Assembly (NCBI GenBank): GCA_963725215.1
Contig: CAVRXQ010000006.1
Span: 2,469 to 66,468 of the forward strand
Direction of reading: 5' to 3'
Length of the DNA stretch: 64,000 nucleotides
Origin: an uncultured Acidimicrobiaceae bacterium
GTDB taxonomy: Bacteria > Actinomycetota > Acidimicrobiia > Acidimicrobiales > Bog-793
Made by a program: the position numbers and the translations under genes. Positions 36,671 to 55,564 of the stretch are shown in pieces (positions within the stretch are counted from its first letter, which is position 1; each line of letters opens with the position of its first letter). Below the pieces are notes generated by a model. It was not told the DNA's origin, did not search any database, and saw only the letters and a list, made by a program, of their open reading frames with translations.

Positions 36671-36677
36671 CCCAGCC

Positions 36678-39373: not shown

Positions 39374-40086
39374 CCGCTCCTTCGTCGAAAGCGGACGCGC
39401 CGATCTGGCACGGCGGGTGGAGCGTCATCGAGCGCGTCGGCACGCCTGAAGAGCTCGTCACCGATCAGCCCGAACCCGCTGATCGGCGCCTGGCGTGCAT
39501 TTGTCTACCGACGAGTGGAGCCGTGGTCCTCGGTAGCACGCAGCGTCCAGACGAGATCGACGTCGCGCGACGTCGCCGAGCGGGCTACGAGCTGTCGAAG
39601 CGCCGAAGCGGGGGAGGCGCGGTCGTCGTCGCGCCGGGGGCGCAGGCCTGGGTCGATCTCTTCGTGCCCCGCGACGACCCGTTGTTCGAGACAGATGTAT
39701 CTCGCGCCGCGCATTTCGTCGCAGATCTGTGGGTTGAAGTCCTCACCTCGAGCGCGTCGGTGGTGCCGGTGATCGAGCCGATTCGGGCCCTCTCGGCGAC
39801 TCGCTGGTCGCGGAGCGTCTGTTTCTCCGGGCTCGGTCCAGGCGAGGTGACGGTGGCGGAAAAAAAGGTCGTCGGAGTCTCCCAGCGACGTGATCGGCGC
39901 GGCGCGTGGTTCTTCACGATGGCGCTGTATGAAAACCGCCAACACGTGCTCGCCGAGTTGTTGGTGCTCGAAGAGCCCGAGCGCGACGCGTTGCGCGCCG
40001 AGCTCTCGTTGCACGTGGGCTCGCTCGATGAAGCGACTGGGGTTCTCGAGGATGGTCTCCTACGTGCGCTGATCGGAGCGGATTAG
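39328..40086 (+). CDS. Lipoate-protein ligase family protein
   Basis: AVVLGSTQ, RRSGGGAVV, CFSGLGPGE, KKVVGVSQRR; start uncertain. Confidence 0.8.
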   Translation: MGAVRDSVARSRRGLTAPSSKADAPIWHGGWSVIERVGTPEELVTDQPEPADRRLACICLPTSGAVVLGSTQRPDEIDVARRRRAGYELSKRRSGGGAVVVAPGAQAWVDLFVPRDDPLFETDVSRAAHFVADLWVEVLTSSASVVPVIEPIRALSATRWSRSVCFSGLGPGEVTVAEKKVVGVSQRRDRRGAWFFTMALYENRQHVLAELLVLEEPERDALRAELSLHVGSLDEATGVLEDGLLRALIGAD

Positions 40087-40283
40087 CGGGCGAAGACGTG
40101 CCAGCCGAGCCACATCCATCCGACCGAGACGACGATTCGGCCGACAACTGTCCGGGTCGCCAGTCGTGCGACCGTTCCGGCCGGCGCCACGGGTCGGTGT
40201 GTCGTGTGCGCGAGGACCTCGAGTCCGATCGCGATCGCGGCGAGGACGACCCAAATCGCGATCGTCACTTCGCGCACCGTCAT
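40083..40283 (-). CDS. Small membrane protein, DUF6186-like
   Basis: MTVREVTIAIWVVLAAIAIGLE...GWMWLGWHVFAR; ATGA coupling with the upstream ORF. Confidence 0.72.
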   Translation of the reverse strand: MTVREVTIAIWVVLAAIAIGLEVLAHTTHRPVAPAGTVARLATRTVVGRIVVSVGWMWLGWHVFAR

Positions 40284-40669
40284 GACAACGCGATCCACGC
40301 GCCGAAGACGACCCACGCGAAGAACGACACGCCCCTCGAAATCGAATTGGTCGCCAGAACGGTGAGCGCCGCGCTCACCGTCGGATGGGAGTGTCGCGGC
40401 GTTTCGGCGTAGTTGAAGACCTCGAATCCGATCGCGCCCGCCGCGAGCGCCGTCCAGACGACGATTGAGCGTGCTGGAACTCGGATCGGCGTTGCGAGCC
40501 GCGTGCCCGGTCCGGGAATCAGTGGGATAACCCACCGACGCGCGGCGCTGAGCGTGACGAAAAGGACGAGCGCCACGGCCGTGACGATGTCCGATCCGTC
40601 GGTGAAGACCCGCGTCTGTGAAGCCGCGACAGCGAGCACGATCGCCAGAAGTCCCAACCAAAGGCGCAC
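40280..40669 (-). CDS. Hypothetical multi-TM membrane protein
   Basis: 129-aa hydrophobic ORF (…HSHPTVS…) whose stop overlaps the next start. Confidence 0.7.
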   Translation of the reverse strand: MRLWLGLLAIVLAVAASQTRVFTDGSDIVTAVALVLFVTLSAARRWVIPLIPGPGTRLATPIRVPARSIVVWTALAAGAIGFEVFNYAETPRHSHPTVSAALTVLATNSISRGVSFFAWVVFGAWIALS

Positions 40670-40786
40670 GAGAACAGTCTCGCCCGTCGGGATCGCTGCG
40701 ATCGGCTCCGCATCCGCGCTGGCGTTCGGGCTCCGGGTGTGGTGCTCTTCGGCGGAGGAGCGCTCGGATCGTCGAAGAGCGCTTGG

Positions 40787-41557
40787 TTATCCGCCCGAGG
40801 CTGACGCCGCGATTGCTGGCCCAGGTAACGAGAGCGCGTTCACGGCGTCGAGGTTTCCGATCGTGTAGCGGATGAGCCGTCGTGCCCGAACCGGGGTAAG
40901 CGTTTCGCATATCCAATCCCAGTGCACAGAGACGAGGTCCCCGACCTTGGGAGTGTCCTCACCTTCGCCCTGAGACACGAAACGGCGGACGTGAACGTCG
41001 GTCGCGCCGGTGAGTCGGAGACGGTCGTTTTCGAACGCCAGCCTCGGCGTTCGCACGACGGCCATATCCTCATCAACCGACAGCACGCGCCCCCATCGGA
41101 CGCGGCAGCGGTCAATGACGTCGAGCGCCGGTCCTCGCATGCCCGAACGCAAAAGACCGAGCCACGGGTACACGGCGAACACGTGGAAGCTGTGATGAGG
41201 CACCCCGCCTTCTGGTACTGCGTTCGCCACGTTCACGAATGCCGACCCGGCTCGGCGGGCGAAGCGCTCGTCGAGCGAGATCAACATCGCCTGTCTTGGC
41301 ACCCGTCGGATGAGGTCGTTGCCGACCCAATACGCCTCGACGACCCGCGAATCGAGAGGATCCGCGATCGCGTTCGATCCCGCTATTAGCTGCAGGTAGG
41401 GCCAGGCACCGTCGAACTCCCTCGCGAGAAGTGACAGGTCGGAAACGTCGCGCCCTGAGAGCGCCCCGGCGAGCGAGGCCGGATCGGAGGGGCCGCAGTA
41501 TCCGAGAGAGTTCGGCGGATACGCGTAGCGCGCGAACAAGAGCGCCCCGTCGATCAC
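40787..41557 (-). CDS. DUF6390-like hydrogenase-cluster protein
   Basis: GALLFARYAYPPNSLGYCGP, EAYWVGN, PHHSFHV, CRVRWG, VHWDWIC; start GTG 41557 coupled to the EamA stop. Confidence 0.8.
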   Translation of the reverse strand: MIDGALLFARYAYPPNSLGYCGPSDPASLAGALSGRDVSDLSLLAREFDGAWPYLQLIAGSNAIADPLDSRVVEAYWVGNDLIRRVPRQAMLISLDERFARRAGSAFVNVANAVPEGGVPHHSFHVFAVYPWLGLLRSGMRGPALDVIDRCRVRWGRVLSVDEDMAVVRTPRLAFENDRLRLTGATDVHVRRFVSQGEGEDTPKVGDLVSVHWDWICETLTPVRARRLIRYTIGNLDAVNALSLPGPAIAASASGG

Positions 41558-42495
41558 GCGAACGCCGACCTTTTCCTCGCCACCGCGGCGGCGATGACGG
41601 TGCCCACCGCGACGAGGGCCAGTCCCCACGCCTCTGGTGCCAAGTCTTTGTGCTGGACCACTGCCTGCAAGAGCGCCGTCACGATGGCGCTCGAAACGAG
41701 GATCGAGGTGACGTCCACCGCACACGACCGAGAGAGCGCCACCATCCAGCTCGCCACGTAGGCCCCGAGCAACACGCCCGTGATCGCGACCCAACGCAGC
41801 GCGTTGGCGTCTAGGTGGAACAGCATTCCGAGCTTCCCAGTGATCGCGAGATAGCAGACGAGCACGCCCAGCCCACCGCCCATCCGCACGACGCCCATCG
41901 AGGCGGGATCGAAAGCGGGGAACACGCGTCGGATGATCACCGTTTCGATTCCCCAAAGGACGGTCGCGCCGAGGACGAGCGCGTTGCCCGAGTTCATGAC
42001 GAGCGAACCGACGCCACCGCCGACCGCGACGGTGCCGACGACGAGGAGCGCGATCGCAATTGCGTTCCAGACCGAAAGCCGCTCCCGCAGAGCGGGCCAG
42101 GCGACGAGCGCGACCCAAATCACGAGGGTGTCGTGGAGGAACGCGGCCGGCACGGCCGAGGTGCGGGCGAGTCCGTCGAAGAACATCACGAACGCGACGC
42201 CTCCGCCGACGACCGCGACGTAGGAGAGGGCAACGACCTCCGACACTCCGCGCAGCGCTGGGCGCGACATGTCCTTCGTGGCTGGCAGTGAATAAGGCCG
42301 CCTGGTGCGCGCGACAACAGCGAACGCGAGGAGCAAGATCGCGGCGAAGAAGTTCTTTCCCGTCGTGTAGACCGCCGGACTCGTCACGGAATGGACGCCG
42401 TAGCTGTTCACGAACACGGACACTCCGCTCACCGCGGCAGTGATCCCGGCGAACGCCAGGCCCGGGATGAGTCGGGCTCGCAGCCGCGCGCTCAT
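41554..42495 (-). CDS. EamA/DMT family transporter
   Basis: About 10 hydrophobic helices in two EamA-like halves; coupled to the hypC-like gene. Confidence 0.82.
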   Translation of the reverse strand: MSARLRARLIPGLAFAGITAAVSGVSVFVNSYGVHSVTSPAVYTTGKNFFAAILLLAFAVVARTRRPYSLPATKDMSRPALRGVSEVVALSYVAVVGGGVAFVMFFDGLARTSAVPAAFLHDTLVIWVALVAWPALRERLSVWNAIAIALLVVGTVAVGGGVGSLVMNSGNALVLGATVLWGIETVIIRRVFPAFDPASMGVVRMGGGLGVLVCYLAITGKLGMLFHLDANALRWVAITGVLLGAYVASWMVALSRSCAVDVTSILVSSAIVTALLQAVVQHKDLAPEAWGLALVAVGTVIAAAVARKRSAFA

Positions 42496-42755
42496 GACAC
42501 CGTCTTCGAGTGGTTTTCGAGCTGTTCAGTTTGGTATCCGATCCGCTGCAGCTCGTCGAGCGCCAGCTGCACTTGATCCGCCGGTGAAGACGCGAGCGCG
42601 TATCCGGCGTGGGCGATCACCCACGTTCCCGCAAGAGGAGCCGGTTCTTCGAACGCGAGTAGCGAAAGTCGGTGTTCGCGACCATCGACGTCTTGTGCGA
42701 CGACGACGTCCTCACCAGCCGATCTCAGCACGCGGAAAAAACGGCTTGTGCACAT
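42492..42755 (-). CDS. hypC: HypC/HupF-like hydrogenase chaperone (divergent)
   Basis: Starts MC (Cys2), ...GTWVIAHAGYAL; TGATG coupling with the protease gene. Confidence 0.72.
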   Translation of the reverse strand: MCTSRFFRVLRSAGEDVVVAQDVDGREHRLSLLAFEEPAPLAGTWVIAHAGYALASSPADQVQLALDELQRIGYQTEQLENHSKTVS

Positions 42756-43210
42756 CAGTGATCCCCTTCCCATTGCGAGATGACGTCCTCGATCGCCGCG
42801 GCGGCGCGGGTGACGGCTCCAGCGACGGCACCACTCAGGTGATCACCATCGGAGAAGTCTTCCCCTTCGATCCCGACGACGACGACACGCCGTGGCGCGT
42901 CACCGAGGGCGGACGCGATGCGACAGACCCGACGCAATCCAAAGGCGTGCGTCGACGCGCTCGACCCGTCGTCGATCTCGTCGAGTTCGACAAAGAGAAC
43001 GGTTCCGGGTGCTGACTTCGACCTGGTCGCGTCAACGAGCACCGCGAGCGAGGCGCCTTCCCACCGACCGAGGAGGTCGAGCGGCTCGGAGATCGGTCCG
43101 ATGTCGCGCGCGCACTTCGATTGCGCGACGAGCGACGCCACGGCAACCCCGACGCCGTCGTCCCCACGGTAACGGTTGCCGATCCCCGCGACGACGACGT
43201 TTCCGATCAT
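42755..43210 (-). CDS. Hydrogenase maturation protease
   Basis: VAGIGNRYRGDDGVG, VLVDA, STHAFGL, VVGIEG; start ATG 43210. Confidence 0.92.
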   Translation of the reverse strand: MIGNVVVAGIGNRYRGDDGVGVAVASLVAQSKCARDIGPISEPLDLLGRWEGASLAVLVDATRSKSAPGTVLFVELDEIDDGSSASTHAFGLRRVCRIASALGDAPRRVVVVGIEGEDFSDGDHLSGAVAGAVTRAAAAIEDVISQWEGDH

Positions 43211-44511
43211 TTGTGCTCCACCGAGAGATCGAGGAAGTGCGCGGCACAAGAGATGCAAGGGTCGTGATTGCGGACCGCTTGTTCGCAAAGGTCGCGAAGG
43301 TCGTCGTCGCCCCATTCAAGTCGCGAGGCGATCACGCCGCGCAGGTCATCTTCGATCGCGTCTTGGTTCTGCGACGTCGGCGGCATGATCCTTGCGTCGC
43401 TGATCAAACCGTCTTCGGTGATCGCGTAGCGCTGGAGGAGCAGTCCGCGTGGCGCCTCCGTCGCGCCGGCGCCGGTGGCCGCGCGTGGGGCGAGCCGAAC
43501 CGACGGGGGATCGAAGCGCGAATAGGACTCGACGAGGCGGAGTGCTTCCTCGCACGCCGCGACGATCTCGACAGAGCGCACGACGATGCTCTTGAACGGG
43601 TTGCGGCACACCTCTCCCAACTGTGAGCGATGCGCCGCCTCGGCAGCGAGTGGCGGGAGCTTCGCCGAGCTCAGCGCGTAGCGAGCGAGGGGACCGGTGA
43701 GGTACGTGTCTTTCCCGCGTAGTTTTGCGTGTAGCGCACTCGAACGTTGCACGTGCTCTTCGGTGACGAGATCGAGGAATCCGCCGGCCGAGACCTTTAG
43801 CCCATCAGTGGTGTGGATCGTTCCCGATTCGATCGCGTATCGGGCCTCGTCGACGAGCGCCGCGAAGAGGTAGTCGTGCGAGGCGTCGGGGAATTCGAAG
43901 CCGGACACCCACTCGACCGTCTCGAGGGCGTCATCCAACGCTTGACGAAGGACGGGCGCAAGCGAGGCCATCTCCTCGGTGTCCGGCGCACGGTAGAAGC
44001 CGCCGACCCGGACGTTCACGGGGTGGATCGCGCGGCCGCCGACTCTTTCCATGATTGCGTTGCCGGCCTTTTTCAACCGTAGGCCGCGCTCAACCGCCGA
44101 TCGGTCGGCGGCAGCCAGTTCGACCGCGTCTTCGAAGCCGAAGAAGTCCGGCGCGTGCAAGAGGTAGACGTGCAGGGCGTGGCTCTGGATCCACTCCCCG
44201 CAATACAGCAACCGGCGCAGTTCTGAGATCTCGGGAGTCACCTTTACGCCACACGCGTCTTCGATCGCGTTGCACGCCGACATTTGGTATGCGACCGGGC
44301 AGATGCCACAGATCCGCGCCGTGATGTCGGGAGGTTCCTCAAATCCTCGTCCGCGAAGGAACGCTTCGAAAAAACGCGGCGGTTCGAAGATCTCGAGTTC
44401 GACCGACTCGAGCTCGCCGCCCGCGATTCGCACGTGGAGCGACCCTTCCCCCTCCACGCGGGCGAGCCCGTGGACGTCGATCGCGCGGTTCGCGAGCGTG
44501 TTATCCGACAT
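43207..44511 (-). CDS. [NiFe]-hydrogenase large subunit, group 3b
   Basis: [22 protein letters not shown] (L1), [14 protein letters not shown] (L2) plus C-terminal extension. Confidence 0.95.
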
Positions 44512-45271
44512 TCCGGCTCGCTTCCTGTTCAAAGGCCGCCGAGGCGGCGTTGAAGGTGCGGTACATCCGCGCGACGTGATCGCGCCTCACCCCGAGCTCG
44601 ATGAACCGCCTCGAGAGCGAGGTGGTGTTCGGGCTCTCGGAGGGGCCGAAGCAGCCGTAACAACCGCGGTCGACCGACGGGCAGAGCGCGCCGCAGCCGG
44701 CGCGGGTGACCGGACCGAGGCACGGCGTGCCGCTGACGACGAGGACGCAGACATTGCCCTTCGCCTTGCATTGTTCACAGACGCTGTAGGACGGGATCCG
44801 CGGTCGCCTCGCGGCGAGATACGCGGAGATCACCTCGAGGAGCTGGTGTTTGTTGATCGGACAGCCGTGGAGTTCGAATTCGACCGGAACGAGGGCCGAG
44901 ATCGGCTCCGATCGAGCGAGCGTCGAGATGTATTCGGGATGCGCGTAGATCGCCGAAACGAAATCGCCGACGTCGGCGTAGTTGCGCAGGGCCTGGATGC
45001 CTCCGGCCGTCGCGCACGCGCCGATCGTGATGAGACTCTTCGACTGGGCGCGAATGGCGATAATGCGCTCGGCGTCCTCCGGAGTCGTGATCGAACCTTC
45101 GACGAGTGAGACGTCGTAGGGCCCTGCGATCTGCGCCCGTGACATCTCGGTGAACTTTGCGATCACGAGGTGTTCGGTGACCGCAAGGAGCTCGTCCTCG
45201 CAGTCGAGCAGGCTGAGCTGACAGCCGTCGCAGGATGCGAACTTGAACACCGCCAGACGGGGACCACTCAT
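44501..45271 (-). CDS. [NiFe]-hydrogenase small (delta) subunit
   Basis: [24 protein letters not shown]...CVLV...[15 protein letters not shown]...GCYGCFGP. Confidence 0.93.
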
Positions 45272-46104
45272 CGCTCGGCCACCTTCATCTCGTACTCCGC
45301 GATCGGTGAGTAGGGGACGACCGGACCGTCGCGGCAGATGAGGAACGGCCCGAGTTGACAATGCCCGCAGAATCCGACCCCGCAGTTCATGTTGCGTTCC
45401 AAGGAGACGAAGATTCGTTCCGGGCTGACGCCGCGATCGATCAATGTGCGCGCGCTGAAGCGCATCATGATCTCCGGTCCGCAAACGAATGCCATCGCAG
45501 AGCGAGCGTCGAAGGACGCGTCGGAGATCAGTTGCGTCACGACGCCGACCGGTCCGAGCCAATCCGCGTCTGCCACGTCGACCGTGACTCTGACTCTTGC
45601 TCCCCGGGTGCGCCAGTCGTCCAGGTCGTTGGAGTAAATGATCTGATCCGGTGTGCGGGCGCCGACGAGCACGAGGACATCTCCCGTACGACCATGCTCG
45701 AGCGTCTCGACGAGCCGGATGATCGCGCCGCGAAGCGGCGCGATCCCGATTCCGCCCGCGACGACGACGACATCGTGATCGCCGATGTCGTCGATCGGCC
45801 AATCGGTTCCGTAGGGTCCACGGACACCGACGACGTCTCCGGGTGCGGTGTTCGCGAGGGAGTGGCTCACCGCACCGACGTCGCGGATCGTGTGTTCTAG
45901 GACGGGCGAACGCTTCGGATCCGAGCTCACAGAGATCGCCGCCTCACCAACGCCGAACGCGCTCAACATGTTGAACTGGCCGGGCCTCGGTGCGGTGATC
46001 GGATGGTCAAGGGGATCGAGGGTGATCGTCGCGATGTCCTCCGAGTCGAGGCGGTGGTCGACGACGCGATATCGCACCGGGACGAGAGGGTTGTCGAAGC
46101 TCAT
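45268..46104 (-). CDS. FAD/NAD(P)-binding gamma subunit (HydG/AsrB-like)
   Basis: [53 protein letters not shown]...CRDGPV. Confidence 0.92.
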
Positions 46105-46111
46105 CGCGTCT

Positions 46112-46579
46112 TCAGCCGACGAGGTCTCGGCCGTAGACGTCAAGGAGTCGGGTCCTCGTCGCTTGGAGGCGCTCGAGGAGGACCTGTGCGATGCGCTGGA
46201 GGATCGCGTAGCCGAACGCTGGCTCCTCGTCTGCCTTCTTGCGCAAACAGAGTCCGTCGATCGCGACCGCGCCGACGGGTTCGGTCGCGACGGCGTCGAA
46301 ATGCCATCGGTACGGAGGGACGAGCCACGAGAGCCCGAGGATCTTGCCGGGACCGATCGTCTCGATGACGATCGGTTTTCCCGATGGACGACGAACCTGG
46401 ATCGCGACTTGACCCCGCCGGATGAGAAAAAAGGTGTCTGCTTCCTCGCCTTCGAGTAACAGCCGCTCCCCTTCGTCGAATGCGACATTCGTCGCGCATC
46501 CCGCCGCAAGGTCGATCGCCGAAGCCCCAAGCCCCGAGAACAACGGGGTCTCAGCGATGAGCTCGTTCATCGATTCCAC
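46112..46579 (-). CDS. Stand-alone cyclic-nucleotide-binding domain protein (no HTH)
   Basis: [38 protein letters not shown]; 155 aa; GGAGG RBS. Confidence 0.85.
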
Positions 46580-46598
46580 TGTTCGTCCTCCGTCTCCT

Positions 46599-47720
46599 TC
46601 ACGTCGTCGCCGCGGGCCTAGACGTGTCTGTGCCCGCGATCGCGGCGACTTCTTCTGTCAGATCGATCCCGACAGGGCACCACGTGATGCAGCGGCCGCA
46701 GCCGACGCATCCGGATGATCCGAACTGATCGACCCAGGTCGAGAGCTTGTGGGTCAACCACTGCCGGTACCGCGAGCGCGTGGAAGCGTGCACGGAACCG
46801 CCGTGGAGGTAAGAGTGCTCGAGGGAAAAGCACGAGTCCCAACGCCGCGAGACCTCGATATCGCCCTCGAGGTTCGTTTTGTGCTCGAAGGCCGAGCAAA
46901 AACACGTCGGGCAGACGAGCGTGCAGTTGCCGCAGGCGAGACACCGCGTCGCGACGTCGTCCCACCGAGCATGTTCGAGGTTCTCGGCGAGAAGCGACGG
47001 AGCCCGACGCGCGTCGAGCGTGCGTGAGATCGTGGCGCGAGAGTTCTCGAGGATCTCGTCCCTCGTCGTGAGATCTTCTGCGGCTGCGTCGCGATGGGGG
47101 ACCGCGTCAAGAAGTGAGCGGCCGAGGTCGGATCCCACTCGGACCAAAAAACGGTGCGACGGCTCGAGCAATTCGGTGAGGGCGAGGTCGTAGCCGTCCT
47201 TTGCGTCGGGACCTGTCGACATCGAAGGACAAAAACACGTCGACGCCGGTTGTCCGCATTCGACGGCGATCACCGCCAGGTGCTCGCGTCGACGATCGTG
47301 CTCGGGGTCGTGGAATCTGCCGCCCGAGAGGACCGTCGACAGAACCCCGAGCGCCGCGACCTCGCACGGACGCACCCCGACGAACGCCTCGCGCACCTCG
47401 CCACCTTGCGGCGCGGAGAGTTCGAGGTCGCCTTCGTTCGTCCGGCGCCCCCGCCACACCACCGATTCTGAGGGGAACACCGACGCTTTGAGCGAGGTTG
47501 GACCGACCGCCCACCCGAACAATTCGCGGTCGCCGTCGTTGCGGATCCGATAGGAGCCAGGAGCCTGCTCGTCGTGCCAGCCGGCGGGGAGGTCGTCGCA
47601 CGACCGCACGTCGCGATGGACGATCGCGCCGTCGCGAACCGTCGGACCGAGCACGCGATAGCCCCGCGAGCGGAGTTCTCCAATCAGGGTATCGAAGTGA
47701 TCGCGATCGATCACCGCCAT
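46599..47720 (-). CDS. 4Fe-4S beta subunit (HydB/AsrA-like)
   Basis: [54 protein letters not shown]; start ATG 47720. Confidence 0.92.
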
Positions 47721-47768
47721 TGGCCGGCTCACGTGGGTCACCGTAAGGACTGGGGAGCGTGCCGACAA

Positions 47769-47834
47769 GGGTCCGACGTCCCAGCAGACACGGTCAGCCC
47801 ACTTCGCTGGGACGGTCGGTAGGACCATCGGCCC
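47769..47834. promoter_or_regulatory. Cluster of DosR/DevR-like boxes (GGGAC-N4-G(T/G)CCC) in the divergent hydrogenase/POR promoter
   Basis: GGGTCCGACGTCCC 47769-82; GACACGGTCAGCCC 47787-800 (weak); GGGACGGTCGGTAG 47809-22; AGGACCATCGGCCC 47821-34. Confidence 0.62.
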
Positions 47835-47918
47835 TGGTCGAAGCGGCGACGCGACGCAACCATGGGTTCGATCGAGTCGGCGCGCGCGACACCGCGCACA
47901 AGACGCCGAAGGGGGAAC

Positions 47919-48524
47919 ATGTTCCAAGTTCGATTCCACGGGCGAGGCGGTCAGGGTGTGGTCACCGCCGCCGAGCTCCTTGCGGTCGCGGCGTTCGACG
48001 ACGGCCGGTATTCACAAGCGTTTCCGACCTTCGGTTCCGAACGCACCGGCGCGCCGATCGTCTCGTTCTGTCGCATCGACGACAAGGAGATCAGGACCCG
48101 CTCGCCGATCAGCGAGCCCGACGCGCTGATCATCCAGGACCCGACGCTGCTCGGACTGCCCGGGCTGTTCACGGGGTTGCGACCGGAGGGCTACCTCGTG
48201 CTCAACACCTCGAAACCGATCGCCGAACTCGGACTTGGCACGCTCGCGTTGAGCTTGCCGCCTGGGCACCTGCTCGCGATCGGTGCGACAGAGCTCGCGC
48301 TGGAGCACCTCGGTCGTCCGCTGCCCAACGCGGTGCTGCTCGGCGGTCTCGCCGCAATCACCGGCGTGGTCTCGCTTGGCGCCGTGGTCGCGGCAATCGA
48401 AGAGCGATTTACGGGTGCCGCGGGATCGGGAAATGTCGCCGCGGCACAAGCGGCCTACGAGATCGGTCGCGCCGCGTTCGGTGCGCAAGAGAACAACAGG
48501 GGGGTGGCTCTTCGTGCTTCGTGA
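47919..48524 (+). CDS. porC: 2-oxoacid:acceptor oxidoreductase gamma subunit
   Basis: MFQVRFHGRGGQGVVT, QAFPTFGSERTGAP, PDALIIQDPTL, PNAVLLG. Confidence 0.92.
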   Translation: MFQVRFHGRGGQGVVTAAELLAVAAFDDGRYSQAFPTFGSERTGAPIVSFCRIDDKEIRTRSPISEPDALIIQDPTLLGLPGLFTGLRPEGYLVLNTSKPIAELGLGTLALSLPPGHLLAIGATELALEHLGRPLPNAVLLGGLAAITGVVSLGAVVAAIEERFTGAAGSGNVAAAQAAYEIGRAAFGAQENNRGVALRAS

Positions 48525-49767
48525 GATCGAAGGATCACGGGCGATCGCTGAAACCGTCGCGCTCTGTCGTCCGCAGGTCGTCTGCGCATACCCAATCTCG
48601 CCCCAGACCCACATCATCGAAGGGGTCGGCGTACTCGTGAAACAGGGCCGGCTCGCTCCGTGCGAATTCATCAATGTCGAATCCGAGTTCGCCGCGATGT
48701 CCGTTTCGATCGGCGCGTCCGCGACAGGGGCTCGCGCCTACACCGCGACGGCGAGCCAGGGCCTGCTCTTCATGACCGAGGCCGTCTACAACGCGTCGGG
48801 GCTCGGCTTGCCGATCGTGATGACCGTCGCCAACCGAGCGATCGGAGCCCCCATCAATATCTGGAACGATCACGGCGACGCGATGGCGCTACGCGACTCG
48901 GGATGGATTCAGCTCTTCGCGGAAGACAACCAGCACGCGGTCGACCTCCACGTCCAGGCGTTCCGCGTCGCGGAGGAGCTGTCGGTCCCGGTGATGGTGT
49001 GCATGGACGGATTCATCCTCACCCACGCCGTCGAGCGCGTCGACGTTCCCGATCAGGACCAAGTCGATCGCTTCCTTCCCTCGTTCACGCCGCACGAAGA
49101 GCTCGACTGGGCGCGTCCTGCGTCGATCGGCTCGATGGTCGGTCCTGAAGCATTCACGGAGGTGCGCTTCCTCGCGCACGCTCGTCAGCTCGAAGCTCTG
49201 GAGCGCATTCCGGAGCTCGCGAAAGAGTACGGAGCGATCGTCGGTCGTAGACGAGGCGGCCTGTTCGACGTGTACCGCTGCGACGATGCCGAGACGATCG
49301 TCGTCGCGCTGGGATCAGTCGTGGGGACGATCAAAGACGTCGTCGACGCGATGCGCGCCGACGGGTTGTCGATCGGCGTCTTGTCGCTCACCACTTTTCG
49401 CCCCTTCCCCGGGGACGCGCTGGCGACCGCACTGTCCGCCGCGTCGCGTGTCGTCGTCGTCGAGAAGTCATTCGCGATCGGCTCGAAGGGAATCCTCGGC
49501 GCAGAGGTCGGCGCCCTGCTCCACGACGACCGCACCGCCGTCCACACCATCGTCGCAGGCCTCGGCGGTCGGGCGATCGGCGAGTTCTCCCTGCGGTGCG
49601 CGTTCGAAGAGGCGATTCGGGGCGAGCTCGCAGAGATGAGCTTTCTCGACCTCGACCGAGCGGTCGTCGATAGGGAGCTCGAGCGGATGTCGCTCGATCC
49701 TCGCCTTCCACCGAGCGCGCATCGCGTGCTAGCAGACGTGCGCCGCCAGGCGAGTCAAGCGGTCTAG
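48514..49767 (+). CDS. porA: 2-oxoacid:acceptor oxidoreductase alpha subunit
   Basis: AYPISPQT, ESEFAAMS, TATASQGL, NRAIGAPINIWNDH, MDGFILTH, FRPFP, GLGGR. Confidence 0.93.
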   Translation: MLREIEGSRAIAETVALCRPQVVCAYPISPQTHIIEGVGVLVKQGRLAPCEFINVESEFAAMSVSIGASATGARAYTATASQGLLFMTEAVYNASGLGLPIVMTVANRAIGAPINIWNDHGDAMALRDSGWIQLFAEDNQHAVDLHVQAFRVAEELSVPVMVCMDGFILTHAVERVDVPDQDQVDRFLPSFTPHEELDWARPASIGSMVGPEAFTEVRFLAHARQLEALERIPELAKEYGAIVGRRRGGLFDVYRCDDAETIVVALGSVVGTIKDVVDAMRADGLSIGVLSLTTFRPFPGDALATALSAASRVVVVEKSFAIGSKGILGAEVGALLHDDRTAVHTIVAGLGGRAIGEFSLRCAFEEAIRGELAEMSFLDLDRAVVDRELERMSLDPRLPPSAHRVLADVRRQASQAV

Positions 49768-49775
49768 GAGGAGCG

Positions 49776-50789
49776 ATGAGCGAGGCCGGGGTGAAGTTCT
49801 ACCAAGTGGGCAGCTTCGCGGTCGGAAACCGGTTGGTTGAGCCGCACCTTCGAACGGTGCAGTCCGAGCGCCGTCGCCCGAACGCGCTGACCTCGGGACA
49901 CCGCGCCTGTCAGGGATGCGGTGAGGCCCTTGGCGCGCGATACGTGTTGGATGCAGCCCTCGACGCGGCGGACGGCAAGCTGCTTGTCGTCAACGCGACG
50001 GGCTGCCTCGAGGTCTTCACGACCCCATACCCGGAAACCTCGTGGCAGGTCGCATGGCTGCACTCGTTATTCGGAAACGCAGCGGCCGTCGCAACAGGCG
50101 TCGCCGCGGCATTGAAGGCGCGGGGAGACGACGAGACGCGCGTCGTCGCCCAAGCGGGCGACGGGGGAGCGGTCGACATCGGCTTCGGCTGCCTTTCAGG
50201 GATGTTCGAGCGCAACGACGACGTGCTGTTCGTTTGTTACGACAACGAGGCGTACATGAACACCGGCGTCCAGCGCTCGGGCGCGACTCCGCCCGCCGCT
50301 CGCACAGCGACGACGGAGGCCGTCGGAGCCGAACCTGGCAACGCCTTCGGACAAGGAAAGGATCTCCCGCGGCTCGCCGTCGCGCACGGGATTCCGTACG
50401 TCGCGACCGCGACCGTCGCGGACTTGCACGATCTCGAAGCCAAGGTGCACCGCGCGATGGCGATTCGCGGTGCGCGCTATCTGCACGTGCTCGTGCCCTG
50501 CCCGCTCGGATGGGGATCGGCGTCGTCAGACACGATCAAGATCGCGCGGCTCGCGCACGAGACCGGACTGTTCCCGGTCTACGAGGCGGCCTACGGCGAG
50601 GTCCTCGAGACGACGCCGATCCGGAAAAAGGCACCGGTTGAGGACTACCTGCGCTTGCAACGGCGCTTCCGGCATCTCTTCGAGCCTGAAAAGCGACCCG
50701 ACGCGATCGCGAGGCTCCAAGAGATCGCCGATCGCAACGTCGAGCAGTTCGATCTCGTGCGTGCTGGATCCGCGGAGGTGAGTCGATGA
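49776..50789 (+). CDS. porB: 2-oxoacid:acceptor oxidoreductase beta (TPP-binding) subunit
   Basis: GHRACQGCG, TGCLEV, GDGG, YDNEAYMNTGVQRS, PCPLGW. Confidence 0.93.
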   Translation: MSEAGVKFYQVGSFAVGNRLVEPHLRTVQSERRRPNALTSGHRACQGCGEALGARYVLDAALDAADGKLLVVNATGCLEVFTTPYPETSWQVAWLHSLFGNAAAVATGVAAALKARGDDETRVVAQAGDGGAVDIGFGCLSGMFERNDDVLFVCYDNEAYMNTGVQRSGATPPAARTATTEAVGAEPGNAFGQGKDLPRLAVAHGIPYVATATVADLHDLEAKVHRAMAIRGARYLHVLVPCPLGWGSASSDTIKIARLAHETGLFPVYEAAYGEVLETTPIRKKAPVEDYLRLQRRFRHLFEPEKRPDAIARLQEIADRNVEQFDLVRAGSAEVSR

Positions 50790-52414
50790 GCGAGCACGAA
50801 TTCGCGATCACTTTGGACGTCGGCTCGAGCAGGGCGAACAAGACGGGATCCTGGCGCGTCGAGCGGCCGATCTACGTCGATCGGATGCCACCCTGCAACG
50901 ATGCCTGCCCGGCGGGGGAGAACGTCCAGGGTTGGCTGTATCTCGCCGAGGAGGCGAAGTACGAGTCGGCGTGGCGCGCCCTAGTCGAGCAGAACCCCCT
51001 CCCCGCCGTATCGGGTCGGATCTGCTTCCACCCGTGCGAGAGCGCGTGCAATCGCGGGCAGCTCGACGAAGCAGTCGGCATCCACGCGGTCGAGCGCTTC
51101 CTCGGTGACGCCGCAATCGATGGCGGATGGTCATTCGACCCACCGTCTCGGAAATCAGAAAAGCGCGTGCTTGTCGTTGGGTCGGGACCGTCCGGACTGT
51201 CGGCCGCGTATCACCTCGCGCGTCTCGGACACGAAGTCGAAATCTTCGAGTCGTCGCCCGCGCCGGGCGGGATGTTGCGATACGCCATTCCCCGCTACCG
51301 GTTGCCGCGTGAAGTTCTCGACGCTGAGATCGCTCGTATCGAAGCGCTCGGGGTCTCGATCACGTGCAATCGCCGTGTAGACGACGTGGAAGACGAGATG
51401 GCTAGAGCGGGTTTCGACGCGGCGTTCCTTGGCTTTGGCGCACAGCTGTCGCACAAGACGGCGATCCCCGCCGCGGACACTTCACACATCATCGACGCGC
51501 TCGACCTGTTGCGAAGTGCAGAGGACTCAGAGCCAATCGAGATCGGGCGGCGCGTCGTCGTCTACGGTGGCGGCGACACGGCGATGGACGCGGCGCGCAC
51601 CGCGAAGCGGCTCGGAGCGACGGACGCGGTGATCGTCTACCGGCGCAACCGCGACAAGATGCCTGCCCACTTGGTGGAATTCGAAGAGGCGCTGTCTGAA
51701 GGGGTGACGGTGCGCTGGCTCTCGACGATCACCGAATTCGCGCCAGGAAAGGTCGTCGTCGAAAAGATGGAGCTCGACGAGAGCGGATTTCCGCAACCGA
51801 CGGGCGAGCTGAGCGAGCTCGGCGCCGATTCGGTGGTGCTCGCATTGGGCCAGGACACGGATTTGTCGGGCGTCTCGCATCTCGACGGAGTCGAGATCAC
51901 AGGCGGCACGGTGAAAGTCGACACCGAGATGATGACCGGGCGTCCAGGCGTCTTCGCCGGCGGGGACATGGTCCCTTCCGAGCGGACCGCCACGGTCGCC
52001 ATCGGCCACGGCAAGAAGGCCGCCCGTGCGATCGATCGGTGGCTGAATGGCGCCGAGACCGTCGAGCGCCTGCGACCCGAGCTCGCGAGCTTTGAGCGGC
52101 TGAACACCTGGTACTACGCCGACGCGCCGAAAAGTGTCCAGCCTGAACTGGAGCTCGCCCGCCGACAAACCGGCTTCGAGGAGGTCGTCTTCGGTCTCGA
52201 CGAGTCGAACGCGCTCTTCGAGGCGCGCCGGTGCATGTCGTGCGGCAACTGCTTCGAGTGCGACAACTGTTACGGCGTTTGCCCTGACAACGCCGTGTCT
52301 AAGCTCGGCCCGGGCAATCGGTACGAGATCAATTACGACTATTGCAAGGGATGCGGGATCTGCGTCGCGGAGTGCCCGTGCGGCGCGATCGAGATGGTGC
52401 CCGAACTGATCTGA
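50786..52414 (+). CDS. GltD/SudA-like FAD/NAD(P) FeS flavoprotein with PorD-like ends
   Basis: N-terminal KTGSWRVERP; PCNDACP, GRICFHPCESACNR, GSGPSG, YGGGDTAMD, FAGGD; C-terminal CMSCGNCFECDNC...CP and DYCKGCGICVAECP. Confidence 0.88.
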   Translation: MSEHEFAITLDVGSSRANKTGSWRVERPIYVDRMPPCNDACPAGENVQGWLYLAEEAKYESAWRALVEQNPLPAVSGRICFHPCESACNRGQLDEAVGIHAVERFLGDAAIDGGWSFDPPSRKSEKRVLVVGSGPSGLSAAYHLARLGHEVEIFESSPAPGGMLRYAIPRYRLPREVLDAEIARIEALGVSITCNRRVDDVEDEMARAGFDAAFLGFGAQLSHKTAIPAADTSHIIDALDLLRSAEDSEPIEIGRRVVVYGGGDTAMDAARTAKRLGATDAVIVYRRNRDKMPAHLVEFEEALSEGVTVRWLSTITEFAPGKVVVEKMELDESGFPQPTGELSELGADSVVLALGQDTDLSGVSHLDGVEITGGTVKVDTEMMTGRPGVFAGGDMVPSERTATVAIGHGKKAARAIDRWLNGAETVERLRPELASFERLNTWYYADAPKSVQPELELARRQTGFEEVVFGLDESNALFEARRCMSCGNCFECDNCYGVCPDNAVSKLGPGNRYEINYDYCKGCGICVAECPCGAIEMVPELI

Positions 52415-52516
52415 CCATCCCGGGTTCGCAGAGCCCGGCGGGAAATGTGGTGTACCGACCGGGTCTCGGTGGCGCGATCGAGCGTGCCGAGAGCCTGGGA
52501 GGTGGGGAGGCAGTAG

Positions 52517-53767
52517 ATGTCCGAGCAGTCGGCACCGTCGAAAGGTGAGGAGGCACCCGAAGAGGGGCCAATTCACCCGTCTGTTCGCGCGACGTTGACC
52601 GCGGGCGTCTTACGCGAGCAATCTCGGGACGAGCGCAGGGTCGCGCTGGTGCCGGATGACGTTGCGAAGCTGGACGGAATCTCTATCGACGTCGTGGTCG
52701 AGTCCGGAGCGGGCGAGGCGTCTTTCTTCCCCGACCTGGCCTACGAAAAGGCGGGCGCGACGATCGTCGATCGATCCGAGTGCCTTTCGCGCTCGAACGT
52801 CATCCTTTGCGTGTCGCGACCAGAAGAGAGCGATGTGCAGTCGTTCGGCGCCGGCCAGGCCGTTGTCGGAATGCTCGAGCCCCTCGTCGATCCTGAGTAC
52901 GCGAAGGCGATCGCCGCTCGCGGCGCGACGGGTATCAGCCTCGATTTGTTGCCGCGCACGCTTTCGCGCGCGCAGACCATGGACGCCTTGAGCTCGCAGG
53001 CAAGCATCGCTGGCTACAAGGCGGCGCTGTTGGGGGCGAGCACGTTCACGAGGTATTTCCCATTACTGATGACGGCCGCAGGCACCGCTCGGCCCGCGGA
53101 GGTCCTCGTCCTCGGCGCCGGCGTCGCCGGTCTCCAAGCAATCGCAACGGCGCATCGCCTCGGTGCCGTCGTCCGCGGCTACGACGTGCGGCCAGACGCG
53201 AAAGAGCAGGTGGAATCGCTCGGCGGTCGCTTCATCGAGTTGACCTCGGTAAGCGATGCCGCCGGCGAGGGCGGCTACGCGCGGACCTTGACTGCGGACG
53301 AGACCAAGGCCCTCCAAGAGGAGCTGAACGCGCACATCGCCACCCACGACGTCGTGATCACGACGGCGCAGGTTCCCGGACAACGGCCACCGGTGCTCGT
53401 CACGAACGAGGCGATCGATGCGATGAAGCCAGGATCCGTGATTGTCGACATGGGATCGAGTGCCCTCGGTGGCAACGTCGAAACGTCGCGGCCCGGAGAG
53501 ACCTTCGTCACCGACGGCGGGGTGACGATCGTCGGCGCGCAAAACCTCGCCTCGACGATGGGTGCCGGCGCATCGATGGCGTATTCGCACAACATCTGCG
53601 CGCTCGTCGCGCACTTCGTGGTTGAGGGGAAGTTCGTCGTCGATCTCGAAGACGAGATCCAAAAAGGCGTCGTCGTCACCCACGACGGAGCCATCGTCAA
53701 CGAGGCCACTCGGGCGCGGCTTGGAAATTCCGCCGCCGCGCCCACGAGTGAGGATGCCGAGCGATGA
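52517..53767 (+). CDS. pntA: NAD(P) transhydrogenase alpha subunit, part 1 (domain I)
   Basis: ERRVAL, RAQTMDALSSQA, GAGVAGLQA, DVVITTAQVPG, GGNVE. Confidence 0.93.
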   Translation: MSEQSAPSKGEEAPEEGPIHPSVRATLTAGVLREQSRDERRVALVPDDVAKLDGISIDVVVESGAGEASFFPDLAYEKAGATIVDRSECLSRSNVILCVSRPEESDVQSFGAGQAVVGMLEPLVDPEYAKAIAARGATGISLDLLPRTLSRAQTMDALSSQASIAGYKAALLGASTFTRYFPLLMTAAGTARPAEVLVLGAGVAGLQAIATAHRLGAVVRGYDVRPDAKEQVESLGGRFIELTSVSDAAGEGGYARTLTADETKALQEELNAHIATHDVVITTAQVPGQRPPVLVTNEAIDAMKPGSVIVDMGSSALGGNVETSRPGETFVTDGGVTIVGAQNLASTMGAGASMAYSHNICALVAHFVVEGKFVVDLEDEIQKGVVVTHDGAIVNEATRARLGNSAAAPTSEDAER

Positions 53768-54090
53768 GCACCAGCCTGATCACCGATATCACGATTTTCG
53801 TTCTCAGCTTGCTCGTCGGCTTCGAGGTCATCTCGAAGGTTCCCCAGACGTTGCACACCCCGCTGATGTCGGCCGCGAACTCGATCCACGGTGTCGTGAT
53901 CGTCGGGGCGTTTCTCATCGCGTCGACGGCGCACAACACAGTCGGCTACGTTCTCGCCTTCATCGCCGCGGTGTTCGCGGGGATGAACGTCGTGGGTGGC
54001 TACGCGGTCACCGGCAGGATGCTGCAGATGTTCCAACGGCGCCCGGCGAATCCCGGGCAACAATCGGACAAGGACGAGAAGGTCGCGTGA
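53764..54090 (+). CDS. NAD(P) transhydrogenase alpha subunit, part 2 (membrane)
   Basis: VPQTLHTPLMSAANSIHG, NVVGGYAVTGRMLQMF. Confidence 0.93.
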   Translation: MSTSLITDITIFVLSLLVGFEVISKVPQTLHTPLMSAANSIHGVVIVGAFLIASTAHNTVGYVLAFIAAVFAGMNVVGGYAVTGRMLQMFQRRPANPGQQSDKDEKVA

Positions 54091-55517
54091 TGGGCGCGTT
54101 CACCGACGCGATCACGCTGATTTACCTGCTGGCCGCAACGTGCTTCGTCATCGGATTGCACCTGATGAACGCCCCTCCGACAGCCAATCGCGGCAACCAG
54201 GTCTCGGCGGGGGGAATGGTGATCGCCGTTGGGGCGACGCTCGCCCTGATCGCGCACGACAACACCGTTTCCACGATCGGGTGGCTAATGCTCACGCTCG
54301 GGGGCGTGCTCGGTTCGGGAGTGGGCCTTTATCTCGCGCGCTCTGTGGAGATGACCGCAATTCCACAACTCGTGAGCGCGTTCAACGCGGTGGGCGGCGG
54401 CGCCGCCGCGCTCGTCGCGATCGCGGAATTCGTCCGGCTCGCAGGACTCGTTAACGCGCCTGCGATCCCGGCGAGGATCTCTGTCTTCACTGTCCTCGAC
54501 ATCGTCATTGGCGCCGTCACCTTCTCAGGATCGGTGATCGCGGCTGGGAAGTTGCAAGGCATCGTCCCCTCCCAACCCGTCGTCGTTCCGGGCGGCAGGT
54601 TCGCGAACCTCGCCTTGTTTGCGGCGATCTGCGCGGGAGCGGGATACATCTTCTCGGGCGCCAATAGCGACTTGACCCTGATCGGCATCACGATCGCGTC
54701 GTTGATCATCGGCGTGGTCATGGTGATGCCAATTGGCGGGGCCGACATGCCAGTCGTGATCTCGCTCTTGAACGCGTTCACCGGAACCGCGGTCGCGATG
54801 GCGGGGTTCGTCATCGACAACGTTTCGCTGATCATCGCCGGAGCCCTCGTCGGGGCTTCTGGGAGCATCCTTACGAAGCTGATGGCCGACGCGATGAATC
54901 GCTCGATCCTCAACATCGTGGCGGGGGGCTTTGGGACCGGCGACGCGGTCTCGGTGATCGGCGCCGGCGCGAGCGGGCAGGTCCGCTCGGTCTCCGCCGA
55001 CGACGTCGCGATCCAGCTCGCCTACGCGAACCAAGTGATCATCGTCCCTGGCTACGGTCTTGCGGCGGCCCACGCCCAGCACGCCGTGCGAGAACTCGAA
55101 GTCCTGCTCGAACAGCGCGGCGTCGACGTGCTCTATGCAATCCACCCGGTCGCCGGTCGGATGCCAGGTCATATGAACGTCCTTCTCGCCGAGGCGGAAG
55201 TCCCGTACCAGAAGCTTCGGACGATGGAGGAGATCAACCCGGACTTTCCCCGCGCCGACGTAGCGCTCGTGATCGGAGCGAACGACGTCACAAATCCCGC
55301 CGCTCGCCGCCCGGGCAACGCGATCTCGGGGATGCCAATCCTCGATGTCGACAAGGCGAAGAGCATCATCGTCATCAAGCGCTCGATGGGTCACGGGTAC
55401 GCCGGGATCGACAACGAGCTCTACACCGATCCGAAGACCGGCATGTACTTCGCCGACGCGCTCGCCGGGTTGCGGGCGATCACCGCGGCCGTCAAGACAC
55501 TCGTCGGCGCCGGATAA
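54090..55517 (+). CDS. pntB: NAD(P) transhydrogenase beta subunit
   Basis: PQLVSAFNAVGG, IGGADMPVVISLLN, VPGYG, HPVAGRMPGHMNVLLAEA, GANDVTNP, GYAGIDN. Confidence 0.95.
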   Translation: MGAFTDAITLIYLLAATCFVIGLHLMNAPPTANRGNQVSAGGMVIAVGATLALIAHDNTVSTIGWLMLTLGGVLGSGVGLYLARSVEMTAIPQLVSAFNAVGGGAAALVAIAEFVRLAGLVNAPAIPARISVFTVLDIVIGAVTFSGSVIAAGKLQGIVPSQPVVVPGGRFANLALFAAICAGAGYIFSGANSDLTLIGITIASLIIGVVMVMPIGGADMPVVISLLNAFTGTAVAMAGFVIDNVSLIIAGALVGASGSILTKLMADAMNRSILNIVAGGFGTGDAVSVIGAGASGQVRSVSADDVAIQLAYANQVIIVPGYGLAAAHAQHAVRELEVLLEQRGVDVLYAIHPVAGRMPGHMNVLLAEAEVPYQKLRTMEEINPDFPRADVALVIGANDVTNPAARRPGNAISGMPILDVDKAKSIIVIKRSMGHGYAGIDNELYTDPKTGMYFADALAGLRAITAAVKTLVGAG

Positions 55518-55540: not shown

Positions 55541-55564
55541 GATGCCCGGCCTCGGCCGGGCATC
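55541..55564 (+). terminator. Hairpin after pntB (probable terminator, no U-tract)
   Basis: GATGCCCGGC-CTCG-GCCGGGCATC, perfect 10-bp stem. Confidence 0.7.

Follow-up and report, generated by a model that had tools for sequence, protein, structure and literature searches.

Two of the enzymes closest to those described here transfer electrons from 2-oxoacids to pyridine nucleotides: in Azoarcus evansii, the phenylglyoxylate:NAD+ oxidoreductase PadEFGHI and a 2-oxoglutarate:NADP+ oxidoreductase each combine a 2-oxoacid:ferredoxin oxidoreductase (OFOR) with a flavoprotein subunit. The three-polypeptide form of transhydrogenase, PntAA/PntAB/PntB, is known from Rhodospirillum rubrum and mycobacteria. 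The group 3b [NiFe]-hydrogenase Hyh of Mycobacterium smegmatis carries out fermentative H2 production under the control of DosR (bioRxiv 10.1101/2023.09.11.557286), and group 3b enzymes are common and non-monophyletic in Acidimicrobiia (PMC11697166). A group 3b synton of Frankia, hyhGB-hupSLD, lacks hyp genes of its own and is never the sole hydrogenase synton (PMC11879354). Here we describe a locus in which predicted relatives of all three kinds of enzyme stand side by side, namely positions 40083-55517 (the block) of a window of 64,000 nucleotides from an uncultured Acidimicrobiaceae bacterium (assembly GCA_963725215.1, contig CAVRXQ010000006.1, positions 2,469 to 66,468). A leftward operon for a group 3b-type hydrogenase (hyd) diverges from a rightward operon for an OFOR whose fourth protein contains a GltD-type module (por-GltD), which is followed by transhydrogenase genes (pnt). 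At roughly even odds (about 0.5), we read the block as an island joining three modules of the NAD(P)H pool, which would discharge reductant in the form of H2 under a shortage of oxygen.

The hydrogenase resembles M. smegmatis Hyh in coming from a soil actinobacterium, in being a four-subunit cytosolic enzyme predicted to be linked to NAD(P), and in its proposed role of disposing of reductant as H2 under hypoxia. Unlike that of Hyh, its operon includes genes for a cyclic nucleotide monophosphate (cNMP)-binding protein, a HypC-like protein, an EamA-family protein and a DUF6390 protein, and is linked to por-GltD and pnt. M. smegmatis also possesses Hyp genes and two further hydrogenases, whereas here there is a single hydrogenase and no HypA, HypD, HypE or HypF; and control by DosR is known for Hyh, whereas here there is only a partial resemblance of sequence boxes. 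With Pyrococcus furiosus SHI and Thermococcus kodakarensis HydBGDA the enzyme shares the same set of alpha, beta, gamma and delta subunits, and these provide the nearest solved relatives of HydA. It differs from the archaeal sulfhydrogenases in the extra cNMP gene between beta and gamma and in its mesophilic bacterial host, and while those enzymes are matured by Hyp proteins, the genome carrying the window is devoid of the four named above. Like the Frankia 3b synton, the operon has no genes for the insertion of Fe(CN)2CO or Ni; in Frankia, however, Hyp proteins from other syntons can serve, whereas here none of the five genomes of the genus has HypD and none of those tested has HypF.

Comparison with PadEFGHI points to an OFOR core with an FAD/NAD-binding module that would likewise deliver electrons to a pyridine nucleotide, as predicted from the sequence; PorC, PorA, PorB and the PorD part match the models of PadE, PadG, PadI and PadF, respectively. 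Unlike in PadEFGHI, the flavoprotein lies inside the delta subunit as one polypeptide, and the core is nearest to pyruvate/2-ketoisovalerate enzymes. As for the transhydrogenase, all the polypeptides and domains of the three-polypeptide form are present, and only its position downstream of por is particular.

Genomes and methods

The source genome (G000; 2.73 Mb in 7 contigs, 90% complete) derives from a soil metagenome and carries the window, with a G+C content of about 66%, on contig C6. Its relatives are metagenome-assembled genomes (MAGs) labelled Acidimicrobiales or Acidimicrobiaceae, obtained from bog, fen, palsa and peat. The genus set consists of five genomes, G000 and its congeners G001-G004, and G021 is a member of another genus. 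The positions of dinB and mraZ were mapped in 60 relatives; co-occurrence was counted in 37 genomes at the family level and in a sample of 401 genomes at the class level; and the neighbourhood of DUF6390 was counted in 80 loci from different species with a distance limit of 10 kb. Genes were identified by Pfam and NCBIfam profile scans of the window proteins, and purifying selection was assessed as dN/dS within the genus.

Results

The block is a lineage-specific insertion

The block is a lineage-specific insertion between an LplA-like gene and mraZ. The distance from dinB to mraZ is 17.7-18.8 kb in G000, G002-G004 and G021 and 2.4-5 kb in most of the family, and G007 and G019 display the empty site, dinB-DUF3040-LplA-mraZ. 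The complete block, with every gene, is found in G002, G003, G004 and G021. Altogether the island occupies the site in all five genomes of the genus (in G001 without por) and in one other genus, and most of the family is without it. Because the fetched loci include empty sites as well as full blocks, we regard the block as accessory and not as core synteny; the original prediction of an insertion into the dinB-DUF3040...mraZ neighbourhood is thus borne out, and universal core synteny, which would have spoken against it, is not what we see. The same gene order is kept in the independent assemblies G002, G003, G004 and G021 and in the further MAGs L023-L025, which rules out chance or an assembly product as the source of the arrangement. 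Since G+C content and skew in the block (0.645-0.66) match those of the flanks, composition gives no sign of recent transfer, and a foreign origin finds no support there.

The features of the block and its flanks are listed below in window coordinates, with the profile matches that identify them.

36612-37982, dinB, flank
38094-38492, DUF3040/SCO2097-family gene, flank
39328-40086, LplA-like gene, left flank, directly before the block
40083-40286, minus strand, DUF6186 small membrane protein (PF19684, 37 bits), left edge of the block
40280-40669, minus strand, hydrophobic membrane open reading frame (ORF) of 129 aa, from the ORF and its translation
40787-41557, minus strand, DUF6390 protein (PF19927, 283 bits), last gene of the hyd operon
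41554-42495, minus strand, EamA-family (drug/metabolite transporter) membrane protein (PF00892, 76.5 bits, two repeats)
42492-42755, minus strand, HypC/HupF-like chaperone (PF01455, 20.9 bits against a cutoff of 28.5; HybG model, E 7e-6)
42755-43210, minus strand, hydrogenase maturation endopeptidase (TIGR00072, 100.9 bits, above cutoff; PF01750)
43207-44511, minus strand, hydA, [NiFe] large subunit (PF00374; NCBIfam ShyA/HydA as top matches)
44501-45271, minus strand, hydD, small (delta) subunit (PF01058; sulfhyd_HydD, 156 bits, and ShyD, 151 bits, on top)
45268-46104, minus strand, hydG, gamma subunit with FAD/NAD(P)-binding and Fe-S domains, AsrB-like (PF00175, PF10418; AsrB, ShyC and HydG models)
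46112-46579, minus strand, stand-alone cNMP-binding protein of 155 aa without a DNA-binding domain (PF00027, 47.9 bits)
46599-47720, minus strand, hydB, Fe-S beta subunit, AsrA-like (PF17179, 103.7 bits; sulfhyd_HydB/ShyB and AsrA on top)
47721-47918, divergent spacer between hydB and porC, 198 nt
47919-48524, plus strand, porC, gamma subunit (PF01558, 127 bits; TIGR02175, 190.8 bits, above cutoff)
48514-49767, plus strand, porA, alpha subunit (PF01855, 222.6 bits, and PF17147; PorA_Arch on top with 429 bits, below the equivalog cutoff)
49776-50789, plus strand, porB, beta subunit binding thiamine pyrophosphate (TPP) (PF02775; NF008819 PorB on top with 324 bits, below the equivalog cutoff)
50786-52414, plus strand, PorD with a GltD/SudA-type Fe-S/FAD/NAD(P) module (NF009410, PRK12771, 741.6 bits)
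52517-53767, plus strand, pntAa, alpha-1 subunit, NAD(H)-binding domain I (PF05222, PF01262; NF006942, 370 bits)
53764-54090, plus strand, pntAb, alpha-2 subunit, four transmembrane segments (PF12769, 111 bits)
54087-55517, plus strand, pntB, beta subunit (PF02233, 557 bits)
55541-55564, plus strand, G+C hairpin with a 10-bp stem and a 4-nt loop, 24 nt past the pntB stop, no U tract
55726-56148, mraZ, right flank

Every gene named in the original prediction was recovered by these scans, in the same order and at the same positions, and the two divergent operons that it had described around a spacer of about 200 nt are there, as is its hairpin after pntB, which folds strongly. All genes of the block have dN/dS values of 0.06-0.25 within the genus.

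The left edge shows some variation among the relatives. The DUF6186 gene shares an overlap of 4 nt with the end of the LplA-like gene; its orthologues hold the same position in G002-G004 and G021, and the empty sites L018 and L019 yielded none. The 129-aa membrane ORF has an orthologue of 154 aa in G003, adjoining an inserted short-chain dehydrogenase (SDR) gene on the opposite strand. Compared with the window, G002-G004 contain about 0.8 kb of extra DNA between DUF6390 and the membrane ORFs, which in G003 (L004 15753-16553) encodes this opposite-strand ORF of 266 aa, putatively short-chain-dehydrogenase-like from reading its translation.

A further rearrangement is observed in G001 (contig C11, L001 7174-7716), where por is gone from the site and hydB faces pntAa directly. 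The scar joins the first approximately 100 nt of porC to the last approximately 130 nt of the GltD/PorD gene, and an intact porCAB-GltD operon, with no hyd or pnt gene within 8 kb, is located on contig C160.

The hydrogenase and por-GltD operons are repeatedly juxtaposed

Among the 37 family genomes the hydrogenase occurs in 16, por-GltD in 23 and both in 14, so that por-GltD accompanies the hydrogenase in 14/16 of the hyd-positive genomes (Fisher p 0.007, uncorrected for phylogeny). In 21 of the 80 species loci the DUF6390-type hyd operon has por-GltD no more than 10 kb away, in three orientations: divergent from hydB (6), convergent after DUF6390 (13) and tandem (2). The divergent arrangement is found in four members of the genus, including the genome of the window, plus G021, and in G023 the two operons are in tandem. 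In genomes of two further genera the neighbour of por-GltD is a different NAD(P)-type hydrogenase, of group 3d type. In G035 (L010, contig C2) hoxHYUF diverges from GAPDH-porCAB-GltD across a 175-nt spacer, and in G008 (L008/L009, G008:C4:48001-88000) por-GltD stands beside HoxFUYH. Because these juxtapositions are several, independent and involve two hydrogenase groups, the gene arrangements argue for a functional partnership between hyd and por, and the coupling proposed originally is supported by this repeated, independently arranged adjacency. Neither module depends on the other.

The G008 cluster comprises pnt, dinB-DUF3040-LplA, a Ser/Thr kinase gene, HoxFUYH, a protease, HypA and a 1227-aa monomeric pyruvate:ferredoxin oxidoreductase (PFOR), continuing with a cNMP-like gene, GAPDH, a PEP synthase/PPDK-type gene and por-GltD; pnt lies across dinB, on the other side. 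PntB itself falls into two lineages in the family, one 63-89% identical to the protein of the window and the other about 52%, with exactly one copy in every family genome that has a match.

The oxoacid oxidoreductase contains a PorD subunit interrupted by a GltD-type module

The PorCAB core is standard (PF01855, PF17147, PF02775 and PF01558, with TIGR02175 above cutoff). The fourth protein, of 542 aa, scores 741.6 bits on NF009410 (cutoff 516), its residues 3-540 aligning to profile positions 16-565, and its domains are Fer4_20, Pyr_redox_2 and a C-terminal 2x[4Fe-4S] region. When residues 1-33 are joined to residues 479-542, the composite covers positions 6-84 of the 85 of PorD_Arch with 85.5 bits, compared with 60.8 for the C-terminal part alone, and reaches 79.1 bits on TIGR02179 (cutoff 60; positions 5-77 of 78). 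Since the joined ends match the PorD models over nearly their full length, we consider PorD to be interrupted by a GltD-type module, an insertion of about 450 residues. The protein had been described as a GltD/PorD fusion, and both parts are indeed there; the two are not fused end to end but the one is split by the other. This architecture suggests that PorCAB with its split PorD may reduce NAD(P)+ directly.

The nearest PorCAB models are those of pyruvate/2-ketoisovalerate enzymes, all below their equivalog cutoffs, and Vor, Pad and oxalate models match too. No second PorCAB was found in the recovered genome, which has one other OFOR and one pnt. The pnt domains are complete: PF05222, PF01262, PF12769 and PF02233 account for domain I, the alpha-2 subunit with four transmembrane segments and the beta subunit with domains II and III.

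The hydrogenase is of group 3b type and under purifying selection

The gene set for the heterotetramer is complete, with HydA (PF00374), HydD (PF01058), HydB (PF17179) and HydG (PF00175 and PF10418). HydA carries the motifs [10 protein letters not shown] and DPCISCAAH, the latter followed by a 9-residue C-terminal tail; these are invariant in 14 orthologues and the same in operons adjacent to Hyp genes and in those of DUF6390 type. In phmmer searches of the PDB, HydA scores highest with the alpha subunit of P. furiosus SHI (9nez_D, 203 bits) and with the T. kodakarensis enzyme (5yxy, 198 bits), both aligned in full length, ahead of the representatives of groups 3c, 3d and 3a, namely MvhA (167 bits), HoxH (130 bits) and Frh (129 bits), and of group 1 enzymes (<86 bits). 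Among the NCBIfam models those of sulfhydrogenases are on top, all far below their equivalog cutoffs, and for HydB and HydG the scores with AsrA and AsrB of anaerobic sulfite reductase are comparable to the sulfhydrogenase scores. Subunit set, intact CxxC motifs and closest solved relatives fit the group 3b type that had been assigned, and activity between NAD(P)H and H2 is predicted accordingly for that type.

The operon consists of nine genes: hydB, cNMP, hydG, hydD, hydA, protease, HypC-like, EamA and DUF6390. The order hydB-cNMP-hydG-hydD-hydA-protease is kept across the order Acidimicrobiales; the cNMP gene sits between hydB and hydG in all 63 of the 63 loci that hold both, in Hyp-adjacent and DUF6390-type operons alike, the maturation protease is present in 69/69 loci with hydA, and the EamA gene in 65/69 DUF6390-type hyd loci. 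The cNMP-binding protein thus invariably belongs to these group 3b operons of actinobacteria and is constrained like HydD.

The hyd genes are under purifying selection. Within the genus, which lacks HypD, the hyd structural genes, the cNMP gene and DUF6390 have dN/dS values of 0.11-0.22 (hydA 0.137, hydD 0.11, cNMP 0.108, DUF6390 0.19), with 0.23 for dinB as a comparison. These values and the intact motifs rule out a decaying relic and give the hydrogenase the appearance of a functional enzyme. Queries with HydA and HydD found no second hydrogenase in the recovered genome.

Maturation genes are missing and DUF6390 is found beside the operon

The only member of the Hyp set in the block is the HypC-like gene. 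HypD (PF01924) has no match in any of G000-G004, HypF (TIGR00143) none in the congeners G002-G004, and tblastn with HypA, HypD, HypE and HypF queries from G025, G021 and G008 returned nothing in the genome of the window; HypD is present in G021. The original prediction had called the block self-contained and its circuit complete, which is not supported, given that HypA, HypD, HypE and HypF are missing from block and genome. The pnt link is local.

At the class level, the 76 hydA-positive genomes among the 401 divide sharply: 47 have DUF6390 without HypD and 27 have HypD without DUF6390, while 2 have neither gene and none has both (Fisher's exact p = 1.4e-18 for these counts). HypF is absent from 14/14 high-quality genomes of DUF6390 type (94-100% complete, several in 2-9 contigs and some in as few as 2-3) and present in 14/14 HypD-positive controls, and the 10-kb surroundings of the 80 DUF6390 loci contain no Hyp gene. 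With HypD gone from 5/5 genomes of the genus and both HypD and HypF from 14/14 of high quality, an artefact of MAG assembly is ruled out. DUF6390 adjoins the hyd operon in 69 of the 80 species loci, and on the HydA tree the DUF6390 and Hyp accessory sets interleave.

Exceptions are G021, G023 and G031, which carry both DUF6390 and Hyp genes, with a HypDEF cluster in G021 and G031. The hyp genes of G023 (L103, G023:C4:900001-920000), with hypF in three pieces, flank a second [NiFe]-hydrogenase of uptake type (a 605-aa large subunit and a small subunit with NiFe_hyd_SSU_C), and this genome also has a 3b operon of DUF6390 type. In G021, no hydrogenase was found within about 8 kb on either side of the HypFED cluster.

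The DUF6390 protein has six invariant residues (C21, H122, H125, C151, H212 and C217). Its AlphaFold2 model (predicted local distance difference test, pLDDT, 73.7) comprises a helical N-terminal domain and a C-terminal oligonucleotide/oligosaccharide-binding (OB) barrel with a helix. A fold search of the PDB gave no match for the N-terminal domain; for the C-terminal part all matches were weak, HypC (2z1c_B) appearing at rank 6 with a template modelling (TM) score of 0.62 on the target and an E value of 0.028, so that the modelled barrel may be described as resembling HypC. For the HypC-like gene itself, the ATG at 42755 is the likely start, giving an N-terminal Met-Cys, and the N-terminal MC(x)SRL is kept in most of the orthologues examined. 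The hypC originally named is present with this N-terminus; its score below the Pfam cutoff limits the name to HypC-like.

DUF6390, usually with the same hyd operon, was also observed in MAGs labelled Pseudonocardiaceae, Mycobacteriales, Micrococcales, Demequinaceae and Gaiellaceae, and in bins labelled Dormiibacterota or Acidobacteriota that are possibly mis-binned (loci L084, L089, L093-L096, L099 and L100). Three closed chromosomes (OY969907.1, OY970152.1 and OY969694.1) are among the carriers of the DUF6390-type operon. We found no mention of DUF6390 in the literature, and no description there of a Hyp-less group 3b hydrogenase other than that of Frankia, where other syntons supply Hyp.

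The divergent spacer contains conserved elements

The spacer aligns among six genomes with invariant blocks (alignment A1), and the following elements were distinguished in it.

47768-47763 and 47745-47740, minus strand, candidate hydB promoter, -35 TTGTCG and -10 TACGGT separated by 17 nt, conserved in the alignment
47769-47782, box A, conserved
47821-47839, box B, conserved
47835-47840 and 47858-47863, plus strand, weak candidate por promoter, TGGTCG and AACCAT separated by 17 nt

A simple sigma-70 scan gave no match in the spacer, and the candidate promoters are for that reason based on conservation alone. Box B was found in 5/6 divergent-type spacers of other species. The patterns of boxes A and B were also searched upstream of hydB and porC in the 80 loci, and box B was not found upstream of either gene where the operons are apart. 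A role for box B as a common operator was rejected, as it is confined to divergent-type spacers, and this absence also makes it unusable as evidence of a shared regulon. By our own reading, 14-mers of G000 match the DosR consensus, which is mycobacterial, at about 10/14 positions, and the boxes vary among the congeners. From the layout of the spacer, co-regulation of the two operons is plausible.

At the other end of the block, the hairpin is likely a terminator: the region past pntB folds over 83 nt at -39.8 kcal/mol (z -2.25). A simple terminator scan gave terminator-like matches at the chance level. Beyond mraZ, rsmH (MraW methylase, window 56145-57322) is split over two frames, the ORF 56145-56684 covering Methyltransf_5 positions 3-81 and the ORF 56414-57322 positions 70-308. 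This implies a frameshift near 56570-56600, which may reflect a true pseudogene, a programmed event or an indel in the assembly.

Discussion

We propose that three modules which elsewhere are distributed independently have been brought together between the LplA-like gene and mraZ. POR-GltD would be a 2-oxoacid (probably pyruvate):NAD(P)+ oxidoreductase that has no need of free ferredoxin, with electrons passing from TPP through Fe-S clusters and FAD to NAD(P)+. Once oxygen is exhausted in soil or peat, oxoacid oxidation would yield acyl-CoA and NAD(P)H, the proton-translocating Pnt would balance NADH against NADPH, and the hydrogenase would re-oxidise NAD(P)H to produce H2, in the manner of Hyh in M. 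smegmatis. In this scheme the substrate of POR-GltD, the cofactor preferences, the direction of H2 flux, the co-regulation of the operons and the supply of the cofactor without HypDEF are inferred.

Several observations weigh against this proposal. The pnt adjacency is seen only in this lineage, and the modules are separable: many genomes have hyd without por-GltD and the reverse is also seen, and G001 has deleted por from the locus while keeping it on another contig. In the class sample, por-GltD was counted in 7 of the 401 genomes against 76 with hydA, a possible undercount, as three first-look candidates were scored per genome. As to the substrate, the PorA, VorA and PadG matches all fall below their equivalog cutoffs, so that the scores do not fix it. 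Thermodynamically, electron transfer from NAD(P)H to H2 goes uphill as long as H2 is not kept low. Box B, as described above, does not extend to loci with separate operons, and the sequence was found in soil-metagenome DNA runs only, no RNA run holding it. Finally, as far as is currently known, Fe(CN)2CO would have no way of reaching the large subunit without HypDEF.

The separability of the modules is also what speaks for the view that the three are co-located without direct coupling, the LplA/mraZ junction being permissive for energy genes and each module serving the NAD(P)H pool independently. The modules are separate in most relatives, G001 moved por off the site with hyd and pnt retained, the dinB-LplA neighbourhood of G008 has pnt on one side and a different hydrogenase with other energy genes on the other, and the dinB-mraZ gap of G024 holds about 6.5 kb of other DNA. 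Mere co-location is nevertheless unlikely in our estimation, considering that hyd and por keep turning up as neighbours, in no fewer than four arrangements and with hydrogenases of two groups, and that chance would seldom bring two operons within 10 kb of each other in some 3 Mb of genome. A reversal of the proposed flux, with H2 uptake yielding NAD(P)H, Pnt raising NADPH at the expense of the proton gradient and POR-GltD acting as a pyruvate synthase for CO2 assimilation, would make the block part of an autotrophy or mixotrophy based on the reversed oxidative tricarboxylic acid (roTCA) cycle. Group 3b enzymes are bidirectional, and the PorCAB of the block is the only enzyme of its type in the recovered genome. 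In Acidimicrobiia, POR and OGOR, the 2-oxoglutarate:ferredoxin oxidoreductase, are reported to be near-universal and highly transcribed in roTCA autotrophy, and hydrogenases have been proposed as electron suppliers (PMC11697166). We consider this reductive direction distinctly improbable: acetyl-CoA is reductively carboxylated at about -500 mV, a step for which NAD(P)H (about -320 mV) is too weak a reductant unless bifurcation or another input of energy assists; the block contains no ferredoxin or bifurcating partner; and por-GltD of G008, among PFOR, GAPDH and a PEP synthase/PPDK-type gene, looks catabolic or hypoxia-type.

The missing maturation genes raise a separate question, as they leave two possibilities: H2 activity is undermined, or maturation follows a new route. 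In the former case the enzyme might not cycle H2 at all, its AsrAB-like beta and gamma subunits constituting an NAD(P)H-dependent reductase of sulfur, polysulfide or another substrate, or its metal site might differ. The comparable scores of HydB and HydG on AsrA/AsrB and sulfhydrogenase models and the absence of HypDEF fit such a reductase, and P. furiosus SHI is credited with sulfur reductase activity in work cited in PMC12008989. We give this explanation only a small chance, since there is no variation in the four active-site cysteines, the tail at the C-terminus or the dedicated protease, all of which Hyp-adjacent operons share in identical form, and since hydA (dN/dS 0.14) and hydD (0.11) belong to the hyd genes under the strongest constraint. 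Tentatively, and somewhat short of an even bet, we suggest instead that a large set of group 3b-type hydrogenases is functional without HypD, HypE and HypF, their metal centre being assembled or obtained by way of their own HypC-like protein (with Cys2), EamA transporter and DUF6390.

Each module of the block belongs to a known kind of enzyme, and the island taken together would serve a known strategy in a new arrangement, its proposed novelty being an OFOR that feeds NAD(P)H directly instead of via ferredoxin. The Hyp-less, DUF6390-linked hydrogenase is the element most deserving of experiment. If it is active without Hyp, it would be an exception to the rule that HypCDEF are indispensable for the [NiFe] cofactor, and would imply that [NiFe]-hydrogenases can be matured by a second route or that the active site is a variant one. 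The occurrence of por-GltD beside two NAD(P)-type hydrogenases provides a testable pairing for the abundant uncultured Acidimicrobiales of soil and peat, one that bears on the cycling of H2 in soil.

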